A stretch of DNA of 64,000 bases from Eremomyces bilateralis CBS 781.70. Lineage: Eukaryota. A program made the position numbers and the translations under genes. Shown piece after piece: positions 733-54,153 of the stretch (position 1 is its first letter; every line of letters begins with the position of its first letter). The stretch lies in NCBI GenBank assembly GCA_010015585.1, contig ML975163.1; one strand, given 5' to 3'. The notes under the pieces are model-generated. The model made no database searches. It was given only the letters and a program-made list of their open reading frames with translations, and was not told where the DNA came from.

Positions 733-1695
733 ATGGATCCTCTTAGTATTACAGCTAGCACTCTAGGCATCACGCAATTTGCCATCTCCAGCATCGTCCA
801 TCTCCATGATTTCCTTGATAATCTTGCTGAAGCTAAAGAAGTAGTACGAGATATTGCTTCCAACTTAGAGGGCGTACAACGCTCTTTGACTGCCCTGGAG
901 GAACTCACTATATCCGACCGAGCGACTTATTCCGCAGCCAAAGTGGATCTGGAGAAGACTGGCGTCGTCGAAGCCGTAAACAACTGCGGCCAGGCATGTG
1001 CCAAATTTACGGACAACTTGAAGCGATGGACGAAACATTCCGGCGCCACACAACTCTCCCTTAGAGATCGCTTTTCAGTCGGCGTGTGGAATAGAGAAAA
1101 AATCCGGACATTCAGAATGCAGGTCCAGTCTTGCCAGGCTACGGTCCATTTCGCCGCCACAAGTACCCAATTGTAGGACAGCTATCTTATATCACTTCCG
1201 CGGATGTATGCTGACGCTCTAGAAAGAATCGTTCAACTCCGCTCCGAACAGACGTCAGAGACTGATCGTGAGAAACTAAAGGGACAATTACAGGCTCTCG
1301 AGGCAAAGATCCAAGAGCATATGTATCTTACCAAGAAGCAGCAGGGTGACGCACAAAGCCGTGTGCAAGGGCTGCAGGAGGAGCCAGACGACGAAGAAGA
1401 TGGCGGTGCACAGCGAACCCTAGCCATTCAGGAAGTTGAAGAGCAGACACGCCGCCTCGAGGCTGATCAGGTCTCTTCTGCTGTAATTTTCTCACAAGTG
1501 CGCTCCAAACGGACAGGCCAGGATATTGTGAACATCATAACTTCCGACGATTCAAGAGCTTTGGTAGGATTACCTGAGGGCGTTGTCGGAAAGGTCAACC
1601 AGCGGATCAGGGATGTAACAACACAAAGAAACTCTGCTGCAGCTGTGGGAGTGTTCGACAAAGACGTTGACATTAAGGATTTTTTCAAGCAATAG
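733..1695 (+). CDS. HeLo-like (HELL / Helo_like_N) domain protein with C-terminal two-repeat HET-s-related amyloid motif (HRAM); putative regulated-cell-death effector
   Basis: Exons 733-1172 and 1227-1695; the intron 1173-1226 (GTAGGA..CTGAC..AAG) joins the two ORFs in frame (TT+A=Leu). The N-terminus MDPLSITASTLGITQFAISSIVHL is typical of HeLo-like/fungal STAND N-terminal domains. The C-terminus holds pseudo-repeats QDIVNIITSDDSRALVG and QRIRDVTTQRNSAAAVG plus an aromatic tail (DFF). Confidence 0.8.
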
Positions 1696-2334
1696 TTACT
1701 ATCAGGGCTTCTAGGTGAAGGTTAGTTGCTTGTTGCTTGGGAATGGATACAAGCCTTGATATTTGTTTTGATCGTCGCGAAGCTTCCAGGGTGATTATCC
1801 CGTACTCTAGTGACCAACATCATGTATGTGCCTTCGAGCCGTTAAATGACTACAAAAAAGGATAAGTCAGAAGTTAAGTCACTAGCTCTGATATGGCTAT
1901 GTACACTGTTAACACTATTGTGCCGGAGGTCGTGTCATTGGCGTCGGCCCATCCCGTCGTTAGTCCCGATTGCACCGTCGCCGATGCGGCAGCATTGGTA
2001 AATCGTGAAATCTGACCCTGAGGAACCAAATCTCGGGGCTGGCGAGGAACGCCAATGAAATTTCTCGAAGGGGTGTGATGGGTTCTCACGAACAGCACTA
2101 CCCCCATTATCGCCTAGCGCCTTGGCACCGAGGAGCCATTTCAGGACGCCTAAATTTGGCAGTTCCACGGGTACCTGAAACTGGGCCAACTGCTCGCTGC
2201 ATTTTCACCACCATGCCGATCATTTCCATGGCATTCGTCGAGAGCAATGACGGACGGCGGATTCTGGTGCATTGCTATTGCTATCTTTCCGGGCTAACCC
2301 CGTGGTATTGTACTACCATCCGACTGGGATAACC

Positions 2335-3726
2335 ATGGACGATCCTTTCCACCTTCTGTCATACAACGGTTGGGAACCAATCGATTTCCTACGCACGCAG
2401 GACGCAGATGTCGTCTATGAAGTCGCAACGCCTCCAGTACCCGCTCCCGTCGAGGCCCATAGCACGTCCGATACGGTCCATCGAGAAGAGACATGCAGCG
2501 TAGAACAACAGCAGCAGCAGCCAGAGAAGCTTGCTTTGGTTCAGCGAGCGGACTGGGACACAGAGATGACATACGATAAGGACCCGCCAAGTTTCATCCA
2601 TTATTCGATCGAGTGGAAGGTGTCTGTGAACAACAAAGTAATCTCGAAGGATACTGAGCAGAATCTGGTGCTGGCACCAGCTGCATTCTGGGAGCTCTTC
2701 CTGCAACCCAAACTGGAGAAGCTCTTGCGTAGAAAGGTACCCCACAACAGGTGTGTGAAGCCGGATGATACCAATATCGTCGTCTCAGTGACAGAACGAT
2801 CCGAGCGTGACTTAACGAAGCGCTTTGACGACACTGATATAGACTGGTCGATTATTGAAAAGCAGCTTGTAAATTGGGGTGAGCTGTTCCGCGCTGGTAA
2901 GAAACTCAGGGTAGACATTATATTCAGCAATATAGAGACTGGCCAAGAGCTGGCTGGTTCCTTGAAGAAGAAAGGTAATCGAGGCCGCTCTTCAGCGACA
3001 CAGGCAATGCTCACAGAACGGGCCGACTTTCTCGATGCCGATGATGAATCTCCCGGACAGCCCTCAGTCTGGCGAGATGTATACAATCTTATGCGATGTC
3101 CAGGGCCGCCATGTCATCTCGGACCTCACTGCTGGCGCGATCCTGTGGGCAAGAAGCACTATAAGCTAAAGACACACCACTTCAGGAGACTTATCCAATA
3201 TGCTCAGCAGGGCCACCCCCTTAGGACCCATGATGATGTTCCGGAAGACATCCGCGATCTCTTATATGCAGAAGAGCAGGAAAGACTTGAGAGAAGGCAG
3301 GCGACGTCAGCCAAATCCATATCTGGCATGGCTCCCATTAACATTACCAATGTGCTGCCGGGAAACTCACCACAAGCCTCTATTCCTGTTTCATACGCCA
3401 GAACACCAACCTCGGTACAGCCTTCGGACTCCTTGCCGGCCGACCATCTCAACATTCCTGGTCTTCGCGATACTGCCGTTCGAGAATACAGCGAGTGGCA
3501 GCAGTCAAACGTTGGCGATAAAAGTCTGAAGGATGAGTTTCAAAAGGCCTGTGACGCGGTATTGATGGAAGGGTTTGACCTCGAGCAGGTTCACGAGGAT
3601 CAGGACCCGGAATTTCTGGTCAAGAATGGGGTGAAACGAGGCATTGCTCGACGCTTTGTGAGTGATATTGACCACTGGGCGAAGAGATACAAGCCGGACA
3701 CTGAGGACTCTGAGAGCGTTGTATAA
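2335..3726 (+). CDS. Uncharacterised intronless protein, probably transposon-associated; Cys/His motif CPGPPCHLGPHC and SAM-like C-terminus
   Basis: Open 463-aa frame from the ATG at 2335 (ACCATGG context). It ends 42 bp from the transposase stop, tail to tail. No catalytic family recognised. Confidence 0.7.
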   Translation: MDDPFHLLSYNGWEPIDFLRTQDADVVYEVATPPVPAPVEAHSTSDTVHREETCSVEQQQQQPEKLALVQRADWDTEMTYDKDPPSFIHYSIEWKVSVNNKVISKDTEQNLVLAPAAFWELFLQPKLEKLLRRKVPHNRCVKPDDTNIVVSVTERSERDLTKRFDDTDIDWSIIEKQLVNWGELFRAGKKLRVDIIFSNIETGQELAGSLKKKGNRGRSSATQAMLTERADFLDADDESPGQPSVWRDVYNLMRCPGPPCHLGPHCWRDPVGKKHYKLKTHHFRRLIQYAQQGHPLRTHDDVPEDIRDLLYAEEQERLERRQATSAKSISGMAPINITNVLPGNSPQASIPVSYARTPTSVQPSDSLPADHLNIPGLRDTAVREYSEWQQSNVGDKSLKDEFQKACDAVLMEGFDLEQVHEDQDPEFLVKNGVKRGIARRFVSDIDHWAKRYKPDTEDSESVV

Positions 3727-3768
3727 ATCTTTAATCATTTATTACCATGGGCATTATAGCCAAGTCAT

Positions 3769-4770
3769 TCAGGAATATCCATCACCGTATAACTTTTGTT
3801 CTTCAACAGTAATCCCCGCCTGTCGAAAATGACCTTTGGCGCTGTCGTCCCTGGCTCCGACTATATCAATGCACCATTCCAGAAACGCATCAAAACCCTG
3901 TGCGGGATTCTCCTGATACTCTTTCCAATTCCGCTTAATGAATGCCTTCAGCTCAGCAAAGAACTCTTCTATTGGATTGAGATCTGGGGAGTACGGTGGC
4001 AGATACAGAAGCTTAACCCCCGCATCACGGCAAAGCTGCTCCACCCGTTCTGTGTGATGGAAGGATGCATTGTCCATTATAATAACCGATTTAGGTTCCG
4101 GATATCTGCCGCAGTGAGGAAGGAGCTGCTCAATAAAATCCTCAAAGACTGTGGCATCCGTCGTTCCCTGGAACACTTGTGCAAACACAATACCATCCTG
4201 GCCATAAGCTGGTAGAATCTGATATCTCTGGTCACGGTGAAACTGGGCGATCTGTACAGGAGTTACTCCATCGGGCGACCAGCCTGTTCTTCTGAATCCG
4301 ATCCGTTTGTCACATCCGGACTCGTCTACATAGACCAGCTGATACGACCGGAAGGACGATAGGTTATAGAGGTAGAAGTCTCGCAGGTCCACGTTTCGTT
4401 CCTTTGCAACTCGCTGAGCGGCTTTCTTCGACCAGCCAACGGAGGCCAGCGCTCTGCCGATGCTGTAGACCGTTACCTGGGCTTCAAACTCATCCCATAG
4501 AAAGACGGCCATCTCATCTTGAAATAGCTCTGGCTTCTCGATCAAGTGTTCGCAGAGCGCTTGTAGCATGGGAGGGGTGATGCTTCGCGGTTGGCCGAGT
4601 CCGTTGAAGGGAGCTCTAGTAGTGCTAAAACAGCGTAAGTTAGAGCGGATGTGTCAGACCGATCGCTCGCTGCAGTGAGCAGCGTCGGCTATTTAGGCAG
4701 TTGTTAGCAAGCTACACAGAGTCATATCACAGATAAGATCTCGGTCAGACGCAGCGAGATTCAGTGCCAT
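3769..4770 (-). pseudogene. Tc1/mariner (IS630-like, DD34E) transposase, with two nonsense codons in the N-terminal HTH region
   Basis: Motifs VYVDESG, VIIMDNASFH and PPYSPDLNPIEE, with 34 residues between the second D and the E. The frame extends 67 codons upstream of the listed ORF to an ATG at 4770 (MALNLAASDRDLICDM...GQPRSITPPMLQAL) but has TAA at 4693-4695 and TGA at 4654-4656. Confidence 0.9.
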
Positions 4771-9562: not shown

Positions 9563-11036
9563 CTGAGCAACTCCCTGCATGCAGATCGGCATAGTGCTGG
9601 ACTATTACTATATGGAACTTGTCCGCAAAACAACCGAGGACCGGGGATGAAGGAAATAAGAAGGCCCTAGGAACCTTCGCAGAACATAGCAGCCATATTT
9701 CGGCAATAATTTAAATGGAGGTTTCGTTGATATGAGACACTCCGATCTCTGTGATGCTGTCGGAGCTCGCGTGACATATTGCAGAATGGGGTACTCGTTC
9801 GACGTAAGTCAAACTCAGGGGAGATCGATTACGGTAACTAGGGGATGTTCGGGCAATTGCTTGCCGGTTGGAGGTTCGACACGACACGCGTCCAAAGCGG
9901 GAAGTGGGCCATACTAAACAAGCCACGGCCCACCATATCCGTCAGTGTTTCAGCGGTTAATCCAACCTGACGATGACGAATCGACGACAGATGGATTTTG
10001 CAAAGGAGCTTTCTGGACCCGTGGCGAAGTACTTCCCAAAGGATATAAAGGTCGGGTGGAATGGCGAGGTAAGCATACTGGAGATTGTTCCCGTCGAGTG
10101 AGAGTCGGAGAAGTTGCTGATCTTGCTATCACGGGCCACGGCACTCCACGTCTCCATGATGGCATCCCAGTAGGGAATACGTCACCCTGCGATAGCCGTA
10201 ACTGACTAAATCCGACTAAATGCTCAAGCGTTCGAATATAAGCGGATTCGGCGGTACCCCGACGAACTGGCAAAAATCTGGACTCGGAATTTCAGATTGG
10301 CCAGCCTGGATACAACACTAGACTCGGTGACACGGTAGGTTTTCCTTAACTGGGGAGTTGGAACTGGTATAGAGGATTTCAAGTCTCAGATAAGGCCAGA
10401 TCCAAAAGTCGCTTTCAGGGTCTAGCGGCAACCGTTTTTTTCGTCGTTTAACGCGGTTTTGCCCTCTCCTAAGGTCTACCGGTTCGACCCACCAGAATGA
10501 ACCGGCTGTAACCTTTCCAAACGATCTTTTAAGTGATAGTTGACTGGTGAGATATTGGGCATAAAAAGCCATTCCTATGAGTCTAGACGTCGTCGAAATA
10601 AGAAACCGCATGACAACGACCCCGTGGACAATGAACAATCAGATGTCATACGCCGTAACGCCGCAGCCCGCAGAGCAGCAGCCTGCGACAACTTCCCCGC
10701 TGAATCGGACCCACCGTAAGACCCTTTTAGATATTTCTCTCTATCTGATTATCCGTGTAGTTCCGTGCCGTCGTTACTTGGTAGTTGGGGGTGTTAGCTT
10801 TAAGCCATGGCGATCCAAGTGGAGTCCCGTCTCAGGTTCATCCGTCATATTAGTACCAGTTCGGAAACCTGGAAACCTTGGACAAGCGTAACCGGTTCCG
10901 AATATATTTGAACAAAAGTCTCGGGATTCACTCTAAAGTTCACAGTGAAGTTCCGCAGGTATCTTGATCATCGCGCCGTTGGTTATTTTCATTCGTTCCA
11001 GGCATGAGAAGCTCCATGAGATGAATAGATACCTTC

Positions 11037-46228: not shown

Positions 46229-49161
46229 GTGTAGATTTGAATAGAGTAATACCGAGAGCGGTAGTCAGTGAACGACACGGCGTGGTCACACATCTATATC
46301 ACCACCGCCAGAACCTTCCCCTGATCTCGACCTTCCGGCTCAGCAAACCAGGTGTGAGAGTTCTCCTGAGTCTGGCTTAGTCCATCGCATCTTCATCCAT
46401 GATGCTACAACCATTACCTTGGTACCCAGGCACACCCCTTGAACTCCAGGTCCGCTGTCCGCATACCCCTCAAATCCCACCACCCGGACGACCTCTCATG
46501 AATCATGACATACGTGGATATTCCCGTTCATGATGACAACTCTTGCTGCATGTATGTAGGAGGTAGGGCATACGTAGTAGTAGGTGGGCCGCGTAGTGAA
46601 GATCCCGCTTGCTTCTCGGTAAGAAGTTGAGTGGAGTTCGGGGAAGGCGTGGTCGATGGCTCCTTCCTCTTAAAGCCAGTATGATGATCCGTGAACACCT
46701 GTCACGGGCCGGACGGACCTCACTCGCGCTGACAGCACCATGTAGCTAAGGCAGGGCGCATGTTGACATGGACCTAGTATAAGGAGAGGGGAGAGTTCAA
46801 GTTGGATTTTGGAATACCAGACTTGAAAGCGTCACGACTTGGATAAATGTACAACTTAAGGCTAACCCTACGAAAACGTGCTAGACCTACCCTGACTCAA
46901 AGGAGTATGATAAATGTACAACAATTTTCGGCATCTAGGGTAATAAGGTGTGGTCAAATCAGTGCGAAGATCGAAGGGTTTTGAAGTCCTTGCTGCAAGT
47001 ATTTTGTTCTACCTTGTCTACGATACTTCGAGTCTATTAATCTCGTCGACTTGAGATTCTTCCATTTCCTCAATTCCTTGAAGGCAAGGCTGCGAGATGC
47101 GGCGCACGAATTCTTCATATCCGAACCAGCAACAAATATTTGCGTGGCTCAATTTGTTCCTCGGAATCTCTGGGATGGGGCGATCATTTGTCACTGTGGA
47201 AGTTACCGTAGTCCGTAAGCGCACGGCACCGCGATCCCAAGCATCTGGACCCGAGATCGACGGTCCAAGTTGCTAAAAACAACCTCACGGCTCGGTGCAT
47301 TCCACATGCCTAGAACTCCGTTGACAGCCTTGTCCATGTCCCGCGGTCGGGTCCCGATGCAGCGAGCGCCCTCGGTGAGAAGCGAGAACGCGGGTTGGAC
47401 AGGCCAACCCTTCTGGTCTGGATCGACTATCGAGAATGGCGGCAAGGCGTGTGGCGCGATTTGTCGAGACCGGCCGCTCGGTTGGGTTGCAGTTGGGCAT
47501 GGAGAGGCAGGGATTGGGGTATCGTGGGAGGGGTTTGATTGTTTGATTCGCAGGAGGGAAACGAGGGCAAGCGGAGCGATTGAGGAGTAGGCGTGGCGTT
47601 TGCGGCATTCACTTACCTATTCCGAGTTCCGATTCAAAGGATAGGTCAGCTAGCGAGCCAGCAGAATGGAAGCTCGTTCCCATGGGAGGTTCCTGTGGAA
47701 GTTCCGGCAATCGATCAATCAATCAATCAATCGGGTGGCTTATACATGGCATATTGGCATGGTTCAATAAAGGCAAATGGAAATCGAAGCTCGCTTCCCG
47801 GAGACATCGGGAGCCTATGTTAGGTTAAGTTAGGGATTGGCAATCAAACAACTGCAACTGGACCCTTTAGGCTGAACAGTGACGGAGACAAAACTGAAAA
47901 GGCGTGGGACAGGCATCAAAGACTCAAGCGGTGATAGGGCGCAAAATCGGGTCGGTCGGCGGGTGAAGGGCGTAGGAAGCAGGTCACCATTCGGCAGCAG
48001 GCAATGGGGGTGGCCTATCCGGGCATCCATCACCGTCCAGGTTTCGGATGATCATGAATAATACCGATCGTTGTAAGGACGAATGACAAAGAAATGGGCG
48101 GTGATTTGAATGGGAATCACGGATAGCGAACAGCAGGCGGTGAAACTCACCGACAAAGAATGGAGGAGTGGTAGTGGTGGTGATCATTTCGTGATGGCAT
48201 GACGGAGGAGGTGGAACATGAAATGAATTGATGATGATGGATGGATGATGGATCATCATGAGGCAGGAAGGGCCGAAGGGGGGAGGAGGAGGTTAGTCAG
48301 CCATGGAATAGAACGTGATACGGTGATAGTGCGCTGTCGTTATGTCCCGTATCCAAGCAGGGGCTAACCGTAGGGGCTAGAGGGCCAACTTCCCCGTCGG
48401 GTGGCTCATGCATCAATGCGGTCAGGTGGCTCAGGCCAATGGCCCAGTGCAGCCTCAGGTTGACACACACAGTGCAGTGAATGTCCCACACAAACTCCAC
48501 GAGACACTTGACACCCAAACGACCCTTTCCCTTTGAACTCTCTCTCTCTCTCACCTCTCTCACTTCCGACTTCTTCTTCGCTTTACTTCCTCACGCCATC
48601 CATTCTGCTATTTCCTTCTTTTCCCTAACCCATCCATCTTCGACAACAACGTCGGAAATCCCTTTTCTGCCGTATTTCGGATCCTCGGATTCTCATTAGG
48701 TGCCTTGCACACCGTCCTGTGTCGGTCGGTCCACCTCCAACGCGTCCAGCTATCTCCGGTCGGGTTGCAATCACAGCCTCATTCCCGCCCAAATCATCAC
48801 CGGAACCGTACGATAATTCCCTCCAATTTCCCTTCCCTTTCCCCTCCCCGATTTCCCTCAAATTCTCATCCTCGCCTCGTCTGACTCTTGTCGGAATTTT
48901 CTGGGCTTTCGATTTTCTGCTGCCGTCTGGTGTTGCTTCTGGAGGAGCCTCCGGATAACGTGCTACCCCTCTTCGCCCTACTGAACACACCGCCTCATTG
49001 GCAACACCTGAACTGACCGGTGCTTCCGCTTTTACTTAGATTACCTTCTTCCACGACTCCCACATCTCATGAGACTTTCCATCAACCTCACTTCAACCCG
49101 ATCCATCACACTCAAACACTGAGATTCCACGAGCAGTCGGTTGACTACATCATCTGCCAAC

Positions 49162-51791: not shown

Positions 51792-54153
51792 CTACATCAC
51801 CCCATCCTCCTTATCATCCCCATCCCCCCCCTCCTCCACCCTCCGCAACGCCTCCACACTCACCGGCGGCTCCCACCCCGGCCTCCCCCCCGGATCATCC
51901 CGCCACGCCATTTCTCTCTCCAAACACCGACTCATCCGCTCCAAAATCCACTCCGCCTCGCTCTTATTCCCCATCAGCGGGCTCCGCGTCCCCAACCAAC
52001 TCCACTTCAGCCGCTCGTGCTCCGTGTCCGCGCTCTCGTCTTCCTCTTCCCCTTTGCCGTTCGTGGTTGGGGGTGATGAGGGGTGGTGGGGACCCATGCC
52101 CCGCGCCGTCTTTATCACTTGTCTCCCCAACCCCGCTAACCGCCCCCCTGCCAACCCCACCTGCGGCACATCCCTCGGCAGCGGGCTCACCGGCGGCGCA
52201 CGATGCTGCGTCGGATCCCACTCATGCTGGCCCAGCAGATGCAGGTAGTACGTCCACTCGGGGTAGGTGTACTGGCGCGGCGGGGACGCGTCGACGTCGC
52301 GGAGGAGGAGGCGCAGCTCGGCAGCGAGGACGAAGTGGTAGAAGTGCAGATCACGGCGGGCGGGGGGGTCGTGAGTGGCGGAGTGGGTGGCGGCGTGGAG
52401 GGAAGAGTGGGAGAGGTGGGTGAGGAGNNNNNNNNNNNNNNNNNNNNNNNNNNNNNNNNNNNNNNNNNNNNNNNNNNNNNNNNNNNNNNNNNNNNNNNNN
52501 NNNNNNNNNNNNNNNNNNNNNNNNNNNNNNNNGTCGGTGGGCTCGTCGGGCTGGAACCAGTTCCTGCGTCGGAGTTTTTCGGCGGATAGTTGGAGGGAGT
52601 GGCGCGTGCCGGGCTCGTTGGGGAGTACGGTGATGGCGCCGAGCCAGATGGTGAAGTCGCTGACGCCCTTGACGACGGTGTCGCCCATGTTGGAGATGAG
52701 GATGGTGAGGGTGGGGACGGCGAGCAGAGTCCAGAAGACGAAGACGGGCTTCCCCGCGTTGGAGGCCGGGTAGAAGTCGCCGTAGCCGATGGTCAGGAGG
52801 CTGGTGTAGGCGAAGTATAGGGAGCCGAAGTACGTCCAACCCTGGTCGCGGTGCTCGGCCTGGTGGAAGACGGCAGCGCCGACGAACCACAGGAGCAGGG
52901 CGGCGGCGCTGGAGAAGGCGAGGGCGATCCATCGGCGGCGGAGCTGGGCGGACCGTTGGATCTTCCGCATGAGGTGGAATTCCTGCTCGCGGCGCTGGAG
53001 CTCAGTGAGGCCGACCTGGTCAAAGTGGTAGGTTTGGAAGAGGCCGAGGGAGATGGTGCGGCGGCCGCGGTCGACGTGGCGGACGGCTTGCTCGCGCGTC
53101 TTCTCGGTGATGCGGGCCTGCATCTTGTGCTTGCCGCGCTCGAGGAGCAGGCTGCGGATGCTGCCGACGACGAGGCCGACAGTGACGATGCCACCGATGG
53201 CGTAGGGGAAGAGGATGGAGCGGCCGGCGTGGGTTTTGGGGGAGAAGTCGGTGCCGAGGCCGACGGTGAGGAGGGTGAAGTCGGCCCAGTAGACGGCGTC
53301 GAGATAGAGCCATCCTTCGATTTTAGAAAAGATCAGCGCGCCGACGAGCAGGTACACCATGAACGCGATGGTTTGCAGCATGAGGGTGCGCTGGCTCATG
53401 GTCAGGCGGAACTCTTTCGGGTAGTGGTGTCGGATGGCGCCGAAGACGGTCAGGGTCATCAGCATGGAGATGATCATGTACTGGCCGGCCGCCATGATCG
53501 CGTAGTAGTATGCCTGGGTCAATGAATGTCGTTCAGGTGGGTCAAACCGGAACACGGAGGTGTTCGCGACCACCACGAGGGCAATGAGCAGGACTCCGGA
53601 GATCATCCAGCCGATGATGGTGATGGGTTGGGCGATCGGAAAGGGAAGTCGACGGGCCATGTTGAGGAGAAGGGAGATGTTCGCGATAAGGGCGAAAGCC
53701 AGAGATACGGCGTTGATGGCGATGAGCCTGGGAGCATTAGTCGGCCGTCATAGTTGTAGTCGTGTATCATCTGCTCACCATCTTGGATCTTCAATGCGCT
53801 CTGCCAAGTTCTCTGTTTTTCCTTCCGGTATGTAGCTCCTCCAGCTCTGTACCAGAGCACATATACTGAATGCGTTCGCTATCGGACCGAACGTGCCGGC
53901 AATGAGTGGGATCGCAGTCGATGCGAACCACCACCGACTGCCATATGATTGATATCAGCCGGCGCCCACCGAAAACACCCTCGTTCAAGCGTTCATCATC
54001 GGAGTGTTCTTCACGCAGTTCTCCAGATACACACCTGGGGTCCAGAAAGTCCTGCTCCTCCTTCTCCTTCTGCTTCTGCTCGGCAATATATGGGTCGTCC
54101 TCCAAATTGTCGGCGGCATTGGAGATAGGCTCATCTACGCCTGGGTCGTTCAT
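51792..54153 (-). CDS. TOK1: Outward-rectifier two-pore-domain potassium channel
   Basis: Two pore loops (FTLLTVGLG and YTSLLTIGYGDF), SQRTLMLQT and multiple TM helices. Two 5' introns; interrupted by an N gap. Confidence 0.9.
52428..52532. other. Assembly gap (105 N) inside the TOK1 coding sequence
   Basis: Run of n flanked by G-rich low-complexity sequence; the reading frame is the same on both sides. Confidence 0.99.

Follow-up and report, generated by a model that had tools for sequence, protein, structure and literature searches.

A two-exon HeLo-like protein with a two-repeat HET-s-related amyloid motif in Eremomyces bilateralis, a likely cell-death effector of an already catalogued family

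A 64,000-nt stretch of contig ML975163.1 from the genome assembly of Eremomyces bilateralis CBS 781.70 (GCA_010015585.1), referred to here as the window, contains near its left end a two-exon gene (733–1172 joined to 1227–1695, plus strand). We consider it likely that the gene product, 302 aa long, is a cell-death execution protein of the kind found in fungal NOD-like receptor (NLR) amyloid signalling: a HeLo-like (HELL) domain at the N-terminus is followed by an acidic helical linker and by a C-terminal switch composed of a pair of pseudo-repeats (r1 and r2), which would be seeded in trans by a receptor carrying a single copy of the repeat (r0). The assignment draws on direct observation of the gene model, of the domain, of the motif pattern and its conservation, of receptors paired with relatives of the effector, and of r0-bearing receptors in the species. 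As judged from sequence comparison, the gene is an ordinary member of a family catalogued in 2015, and a first-pass annotation, made from the raw sequence of the window, had called it correctly.

In the unspliced sequence the gene appears as two open reading frames (ORFs; 733–1176 and 1204–1695, plus strand) that share the same frame and are separated by one stop codon at 1174–1176. The first-pass annotation had proposed that splicing of 1173–1226 joins them. Excision of this phase 2 intron (54 nt; GTAGGA...CTGAC...AAG, with GT..AG ends and CTGAC at 1211–1215) fuses both ORFs into a protein of 302 aa, and the spliced product is 100% identical to P0001, the hypothetical protein P152DRAFT_515351 of E. 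bilateralis CBS 781.70. The junction (...STQL/IVQLRSE...) was unbroken in 18 of the 20 homologues of alignment A1, the exceptions being P0010, with a deletion, and P0020, with an 18-aa insert. Contigs of sequencing run X1, whose label as RNA is a guess only, were also compared with the window. One contig spanned 589–1101 without mismatch, and two others broke at 1172 and carried a loose end, AATCGTTCAA, that corresponds to 1227–1236 and thus to the joined form, over 10 letters only. The X1 contigs gave no cover over 1238–1974, and this gap was not used as evidence. A GT..AG intron of 50–55 nt was found at the same codon in five of five related loci (L001, L008, L010, L013, and L016), counting only those in which the search pattern matched both flanks, which it did not in the remaining 18. 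An alternative intron at 1163–1222 (GTACCC...TAG, 60 nt, in frame, with a 300-aa product) was set aside, since 1173–1226 is the one that fits P0001, the homologues and the X1 loose end alike. The proposed splice was borne out by the identity with P0001, the junction in A1, the X1 loose end, and the intron in relatives, and the gene model is settled. Exon 1 (733–1172) encodes residues 1–146 plus two bases of codon 147 and carries the first part of the HeLo-like domain, whose remainder, up to residue 202, is encoded by the start of exon 2 (1227–1392).

The N-terminal part of P0001 matched the Pfam family PF17111 with 75.9 bits (cut-off 27.2) over residues 1–202, which aligned to profile positions 1–200 of 209. 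Exon 1 alone scored 66.2 bits (E 3.5e-18), and the family was matched by all 20 homologues. At E-values up to 1, the only other Pfam match of P0001 was a chance one to NMD3, and no NCBIfam family was found for the protein. PF17111 was used as the HeLo-like domain in a 2022 paper on fungal NLRs, and its score above the gathering threshold confirmed the HeLo-like domain that had been proposed from the raw sequence. The hydrophobic N-terminus noted at the same time was also found: residues 1–24 (MDPLSITASTLGITQFAISSIVHL; 733–804, plus strand) contain D2 as their sole charged residue, are strongly conserved in A1, and overlap two helices (residues 8–11 and 15–29) of the AlphaFold2 model. By analogy with HET-S and HELLF, this segment is presumed to be the membrane-inserting helix of the HeLo-like domain. 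The full-length model is all-helical up to residue 239, and the domain is followed by an acidic helical linker (residues 203–242, ending in EEPDDEEDGGAQRTLAIQEVEEQTRRLEADQVSSAVIFSQVRSKR; 1393–1512, plus strand), delimited in A1 and modelled as a helix at 206–239. Three 60-letter contigs of run X1 fall at 1010–1100, where the domain is most conserved: two are about 3800–4000 deep and carry 2–3 differences, and the third has a depth of 6. These short contigs probably come from other members of the family in the same run.

The present Pfam name of PF17111 is PigL_N, and UniRef describes homologues of P0001 as 'Azaphilone pigments biosynthesis cluster protein L N-terminal domain-containing', which would make the protein a PigL-like accessory component of a cluster for a pigment or another secondary metabolite. 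These names derive from the domain alone. Moreover, no polyketide synthase or tailoring enzyme was present among the 10 largest of the 35 ORFs of at least 200 aa in the window, which code for SelO, an EDC4-like protein, an aminotransferase, a SET protein, RPB2, Rsm22, an ion channel, a transposase, and two proteins of no recognised kind. The conserved two-repeat tail and the receptors paired with relatives, described below, have no place in a pigment function, and we regard this explanation as highly improbable. Other deposited names in the family mislead as well, such as 'cytochrome p450' for P0015 of Stemphylium lycopersici and 'DNA gyrase/topoisomerase IV subunit A' for the JGI proteins P0029 and P0035.

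The C-terminal region was analyzed using the 21-residue numbering of the HET-s-related amyloid motif (HRAM) of Daskalov et al. (2015). In this numbering, r1 comprises residues 243–263 (TGQDIVNIITSDDSRALVGLP; 1513–1575, plus strand) and scored 41.9 bits against a hidden Markov model (HMM) of the repeat, in the same register as r1 of the Capronia homologue; r2 comprises residues 270–290 (VNQRIRDVTTQRNSAAAVGVF; 1594–1656, plus strand) and scored 46.4 bits. Both are separated by a six-residue loop, EGVVGK (1576–1593), and followed by a C-terminal tail with two aromatic residues (DKDVDIKDFFKQ; 1657–1695, including the stop codon at 1693–1695). The first-pass annotation had placed the repeats at 1519–1569 and 1600–1650, 27 residues apart and followed by DIKDFF, and the sequence does read so (...DIKDFFKQ). 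According to the 2015 paper (Sci Rep 5:12494), HRAMs occur in HeLo, HeLo-like or sesA proteins of <310 aa, as a pair of 21-residue pseudo-repeats that falls within the last 80 residues; they have glycine at position 19, hydrophobic residues at 5, 8, 10 (where T also counts), 16, and 18, and a preference for R/K at 15, with a loop of 6–18 residues, a short and often aromatic segment past r2, and charge complementarity between r1 and r2 reported at positions 4, 6, 7, 11, 12, and 13. P0001 agrees with this description in the length and place of the repeats, its size of 302 aa, G19, the core positions, the loop of six residues, the aromatic tail, and the charge complementarity. The tail thus matches the HRAM sequence pattern, and relatives had already been listed as HRAM proteins, which upheld the call of a two-repeat amyloid motif.

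Conservation of the repeat register was examined in 20 homologues and was found throughout. Neither repeat varies at positions 5, 14, and 19, and the residue type at positions 3, 8, 10, 16, and 18 is kept in 18–20 of the 20 sequences. For r1 and r2 alike, G19, I5, V/I8, and V/I18 occur in 20/20; T10 occurs in 19/20 (r1) and 20/20 (r2), A16 in 20/20 (r1) and 18/20 (r2, with V in the other two), and glutamine at position 3 in 19/20 (r1) and 18/20 (r2). The R/K preference at position 15 holds for one repeat only: r1 has R/K in 20/20, and r2 has A, V, S or T in 18/20. In-register parallel stacking predicts opposite charges between r1 and r2; the outward position 4 shows them in 18 of the 20 sequences and position 12 in 10, and charge pairs of the same sign occupied 1 of 420 cells. 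When the family profiles of r1 and r2 were compared, columns 3–19 aligned to columns 3–19 (P 3.4e-7). Within P0001 alone, the best-scoring ungapped pair of 21-mers is also the r1/r2 pair, one residue off the published register (score 30). By these comparisons, the repeat is significant at the level of the family, not from the single sequence. No Pfam family matched the tail at E-values up to 10. This is expected, because PF11558, the family of the HET-s prion domain, is matched by only 38 of the 155 HRAM proteins of the 2015 paper (Sci Rep 5:12494).

Comparisons with solved structures brought up a second fold. A phmmer search with the 66-residue tail of P0001 ranked designed and lamprey leucine-rich-repeat (LRR) proteins at the top (5A5C at E 9.2e-5), the aligned segments being LPEGVVGKV and VGVFDKDVDIKD against LPNGVFDKLTNL; the region 1561–1692 (LPEGVVGKV...VGVFDKDVDIKD) is close to the lamprey-type consensus LPxGVFDKLxxL. 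The tail could then be a short LRR-like or other folded interaction module with no amyloid switch. The E-value for 5A5C, however, is a sum over the many repeats of repetitive targets, and no single stretch was significant, the best being 11.6 bits (independent E-value 3.1) in 5UFB and 7.7 bits (independent E-value 53) in 5A5C. The Pfam search that left the tail without a match included the LRR models, and the two copies in the tail, with a period of 27 residues, differ from the several tandem copies of about 24 residues expected of LRRs. When the family profile was used in place of the single sequence, the LRR matches dropped out and the HELLF amyloid, 6EKA, came first, aligned without gaps over 57 residues and with the same 27-residue offset. 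The r0 copies in receptors of relatives are also explained by templating, not by an LRR. Taken together, an LRR-like module is very hard to reconcile with these data, and we judge the likeness to the LRR consensus to be chance or convergence between two beta-solenoid-type repeats.

Modelled alone with AlphaFold2, the tail formed four strands (244–252, 257–263, 270–279, and 284–290), two per repeat, with a mean predicted local distance difference test score of 79.8. Re-scoring of the 22 Foldseek matches of this model gave Z of at least 2 only for 6EKA (Z 4.6, root-mean-square deviation 4.7, 51 residues aligned), 2LBU (2.8), and 2RNM (2.6), and 6EKA ranked first of 48,161 chains in an unbiased fold search. 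The resemblance of the tail to the HELLF amyloid is consistent but weak. By analogy with characterized systems, the tail would assemble into an amyloid or prion of beta-solenoid type, and this would activate the N-terminal domain.

The family itself is not new. Rows 34, 55, 78, 105, 131, and 156 in supplement file 2 of the 2015 study by Daskalov, Dyrka and Saupe (Sci Rep 5:12494) hold a protein of Capronia epimyces (row 34) and five JGI proteins with the same r1, loop and r2; the loop of family members is given there as [AE]SVVGK, of length 6, and for five of these six rows an r0 motif from the adjacent receptor is listed. These homologues, recorded as HRAM proteins with receptor r0 motifs, are 58–83% identical to P0001 across the tail. 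The Capronia protein (P0004) is 77% identical to the window protein and has the same register, a six-residue loop xSVVGK and a similar tail. In contrast, the E. bilateralis protein is absent from the data set of that supplement, and no adjacent receptor was seen at its gene. The first-pass suggestion of a possible new motif variant did not hold, since close relatives are already in the 2015 data set. No entry for Eremomyces, under that name or as P152DRAFT or Erebi, turned up in the 11 supplementary files searched for the 2022 NLR paper. The residues at positions 3, 16, and 18 suggest that the motif belongs to subfamily HRAM2, with Q at position 3 and no Q at 16 (A) or 18 (V/I), a criterion taken from the 2015 text alone, as the supplement has no subfamily column.

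P0001 was further compared with the systems closest to it. Like P0001, HELLF combines a HeLo-like domain with a prion-forming domain of two repeats C-terminal to it, and both share RTGQ, T..D.S.A..G and Q...T...S.A..G. FNT1, an NB-ARC/TPR receptor, adjoins hellf, whereas no receptor adjoins the E. bilateralis effector gene; receptors of the relatives of this effector are of the NACHT-ankyrin type (L013 and L014), and a receptor of E. bilateralis described below, P0058, is of the NACHT-WD40 type. According to the HELLF preprint (bioRxiv 10.1101/2020.07.06.188508), each HELLF repeat opens with the hallmark QxFG and closes with the hallmark QG. These are missing in P0001, which has QDIV...VG and QRIR...VG instead, and neither FG nor Q before G19 was found in any of the 20 homologues. 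The earlier statement that the motif is closest to that of HELLF therefore stood as regards resemblance, with 6EKA as the top solved match (E 0.12), but not as regards the strict HELLF type. The numbering of the HELLF subfamily is itself inconsistent, HELLF being placed in HRAM4 (Q at 18) in the 2015 paper and in HRAM5 in the 2020 preprint and a 2021 review. With HET-S, P0001 shares the 21-residue register, a polar ladder residue at position 3, the core positions 5, 8, 10, 16, and 18, and glycine at 19, and the modelled tail is weakly similar to the HET-s structures 2RNM and 2LBU (Z 2.6–2.8). HET-S differs in having a HeLo N-terminal domain (PF14479) instead of PF17111, N instead of Q at position 3, and a PF11558 domain that P0001 does not match. 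The loop of HET-s is also longer, about 15 residues versus six in P0001. HELLP/PNT1 and the mammalian RHIM/MLKL systems, as described in the 2021 review (PMC7889193), likewise place a HeLo-like execution domain under a C-terminal amyloid motif that is shared with a receptor. The PP motif of HELLP, however, is a single pseudo-palindromic motif of another family, and no sign of it was seen in P0001.

Receptor genes were then sought beside relatives of the effector, in 23 metagenome loci encoding such relatives, 17 of which have at least 600 nt of upstream sequence. A divergent NACHT gene with its 5' end within about 700 nt of the effector ATG was present in 10 of these 17 loci, and seven had no adjacent receptor. 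At the former loci, the receptor N-terminus carries one r0 copy, and the r0 exon lies 260–500 nt upstream of the effector. In L013 and L014 the receptor combines NACHT/NPHP3_N with ankyrin repeats, and in L001 it is of the NACHT type. In the 2015 paper, an adjacent receptor is reported for 98 of 155 genes, clustering being common but not systematic (Sci Rep 5:12494), and unlinked receptor-effector sets are predicted in other species in the 2021 review (PMC7889193). In two named species, an r0-bearing NACHT protein and an effector homologue are on contigs of the same size, P0064 and P0008 in Mollisia scopiformis (951,970 nt) and P0152 and P0006 in Cladophialophora immunda (14,485 nt), which is consistent with linked pairs.

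Using the NACHT part of the L001 receptor as query, four E. bilateralis proteins were found among the best 120 of 4815 matches, and three of them start with r0: P0058 (MAGVTQDISSVLIDNHSGAAV...), P0085 (MSGSTQLISGVSANQNSQVVAG...) and P0112 (MSGNTQLISSVSANQNSLAFAG...), which scored 30.8, 11.4, and 16.4 bits, respectively, against the r0 HMM. The first-pass annotation had described the gene as the effector half of an NLR-amyloid pair and had proposed a scan for r0-bearing NACHT genes. Such receptors do occur beside relatives and, in this species, on other contigs; within the 64 kb of the window none was found. On sequence grounds, E. bilateralis has the right kind of receptors, and this effector is not canonically linked to one, as far as the 732 nt upstream shows, this being the sequence covered up to the left end of the window. 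At the site of the r0 exon of relatives, no counterpart was found upstream of the window gene; the only similarity to L001 and L005 there is weak, is confined to 507–721 and falls in their promoter-proximal part (E 0.025 and 0.086), and the upstream 732 nt are not repeated elsewhere in the window. A 682-nt contig of run X1 matches 300–513 with two substitutions and a 4-nt deletion and then diverges at 513, which suggests a second, slightly different copy of 300–513 elsewhere, perhaps at a paralogue of the gene.

Several results weigh against an NLR amyloid-signalling function for this protein. At the level of the single sequence, the score of 30 of the r1/r2 pair was reached by 214 of 1000 shuffles, and an HMM of r1 alone scored r2 at 1.0 bit and that of r2 scored r1 at −0.5 bit, in register but not significant. 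Neither HeLo (PF14479) nor the HET-s prion domain (PF11558) matched P0001 at E-values up to 1. As to structure, the sequence match of the family profile to 6EKA is weak, at the E-value given above; Foldseek gave no match of the tail model at E 0.001 or better, with 2RNM first at E 2.2; and in the unbiased fold search 6EKA reached Z 3.0, within 1 of unrelated dehydrogenases. The full-length model had no Foldseek match at E 0.001 or better either, and with VIA-align it resembled nothing but generic helical bundles, the best Z of 9.5 falling short of the value required to count among helical folds. With respect to a partner, no receptor gene was found on either side of the effector gene (732 nt upstream, 62 kb downstream). 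Searches of the 64-kb window beyond the effector gene with the repeat and r0 HMMs gave at most 7.5–8.0 bits, tblastn with three receptor sequences gave no match in the window (best E 0.043), and no NACHT or NB-ARC domain was present among the ten largest ORFs. A third copy of the repeat, sought in the window with two regular expressions and three HMMs, yielded only chance fragments (7.5 bits at 48376–48296, 8.0 bits at 3730–3623, and regular-expression matches at 10778 and 13722 in unrelated frames). A word-index search with the 66-residue tail for longer proteins returned none of >304 aa, the motif being too short for this search. The r0 sequences of P0058, P0085, and P0112 share only 4–7 of 17 core positions with r1 and r2, and these receptors are on contigs of 430,866, 2,113,909, and 2,395,525 nt, while the effector contig has 623,433 nt. 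Finally, we found no paper on P0001 and no experimental test of its HRAM subfamily in the literature searched, which left aside the supplementary information of the HELLF preprint.

The lack of r0 or a receptor gene at the canonical upstream place or anywhere in the window, together with the seven of 17 related loci with no adjacent receptor and the 98 of 155 genes that have one in the 2015 paper, would also fit an orphan copy left by duplication. Such a copy would have lost its cognate receptor or never had one, and it would be inert and drifting or would act independently of a receptor, for example as a het-s-like prion or incompatibility factor. A second paralogue (P0002), 87% identical to P0001 (264/302), does exist in E. 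bilateralis, and its contig has the same size as that of P0085 (2,113,909 nt), so that the pairing may belong to the paralogue. An orphan copy, on the other hand, has against it the intact reading frame, the conservation of all HRAM core positions, and the glutamines at position 3, both kept in P0001 and replaced by H (r1) and L (r2) in P0002. The presence of the spliced form in run X1, the three r0-bearing receptors in the species, and the unlinked sets predicted elsewhere (PMC7889193) speak against it as well. We thus consider an orphan copy unlikely, and favor an execution protein that is activated by an unlinked receptor.

By analogy with HET-S/NWD2 and HELLF/FNT1, from which amyloid formation, templating and toxicity are extrapolated, the protein would act as follows. 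In the soluble state, the hydrophobic N-terminus of the HELL domain would be kept harmless. An activated NACHT receptor with one N-terminal r0 would oligomerise, and its r0 segments would fold into a beta-solenoid seed, which would template r1 and r2 of the effector by in-register stacking, with two rungs per molecule. Folding of the tail would then free the HELL domain for insertion into the plasma membrane, leading to cell death. Seeding in trans would most likely be exerted by one of the three r0-bearing NACHT proteins on other contigs.

A change at position 3 is not confined to the E. bilateralis paralogue. In L018/L019 and L004, r1, r2 and the receptor r0 all lack the glutamine, having I, L or V in its place, so that L018/L019, L004 and P0002 have the appearance of a concerted change at the position that defines the subfamily. 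We tentatively raise the possibility, with considerable doubt, that E. bilateralis has a branched and unlinked HRAM network of three receptors and two paralogous effectors on four contigs, in which a change at one ladder position after duplication might have set up a seeding barrier between P0001 and P0002, and in which P0001 might be seeded in trans by P0058.

Downstream of the effector gene lie an ORF of 484 aa that matched neither Pfam nor NCBIfam (2272–3726, plus strand) and an ORF for a DDE_3 (Tc1/mariner-type) transposase with an HTH_33 domain (3769–4569, minus strand). The region 12674–53660 has a housekeeping look, with SelO, the EDC4-like beta-propeller protein, a class-III aminotransferase, a SET/Med26 protein, the second-largest subunit of RNA polymerase II, Rsm22, and a two-pore-type ion channel. 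Within the region of the 622-aa ion-channel ORF (51792–53660, minus strand), 105 consecutive N occupy 52428–52532.

As the catalogue already holds close relatives, the gene by itself opens no new question. It illustrates how an effector of amyloid signalling can be spotted in raw sequence despite an intron that splits it. In the search with the tail, 36 of 44 matches were exon-2-only fragments of 117–187 aa with no Pfam domain, and prokaryote-style gene callers report just this piece of such effectors. In the HELLF work, the question of which side chains set cross-seeding barriers was approached with engineered variants (bioRxiv 10.1101/2020.07.06.188508). The two paralogous effectors of E. 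bilateralis, which differ at position 3, together with the three candidate receptors, would provide a natural test set for cross-seeding barriers.

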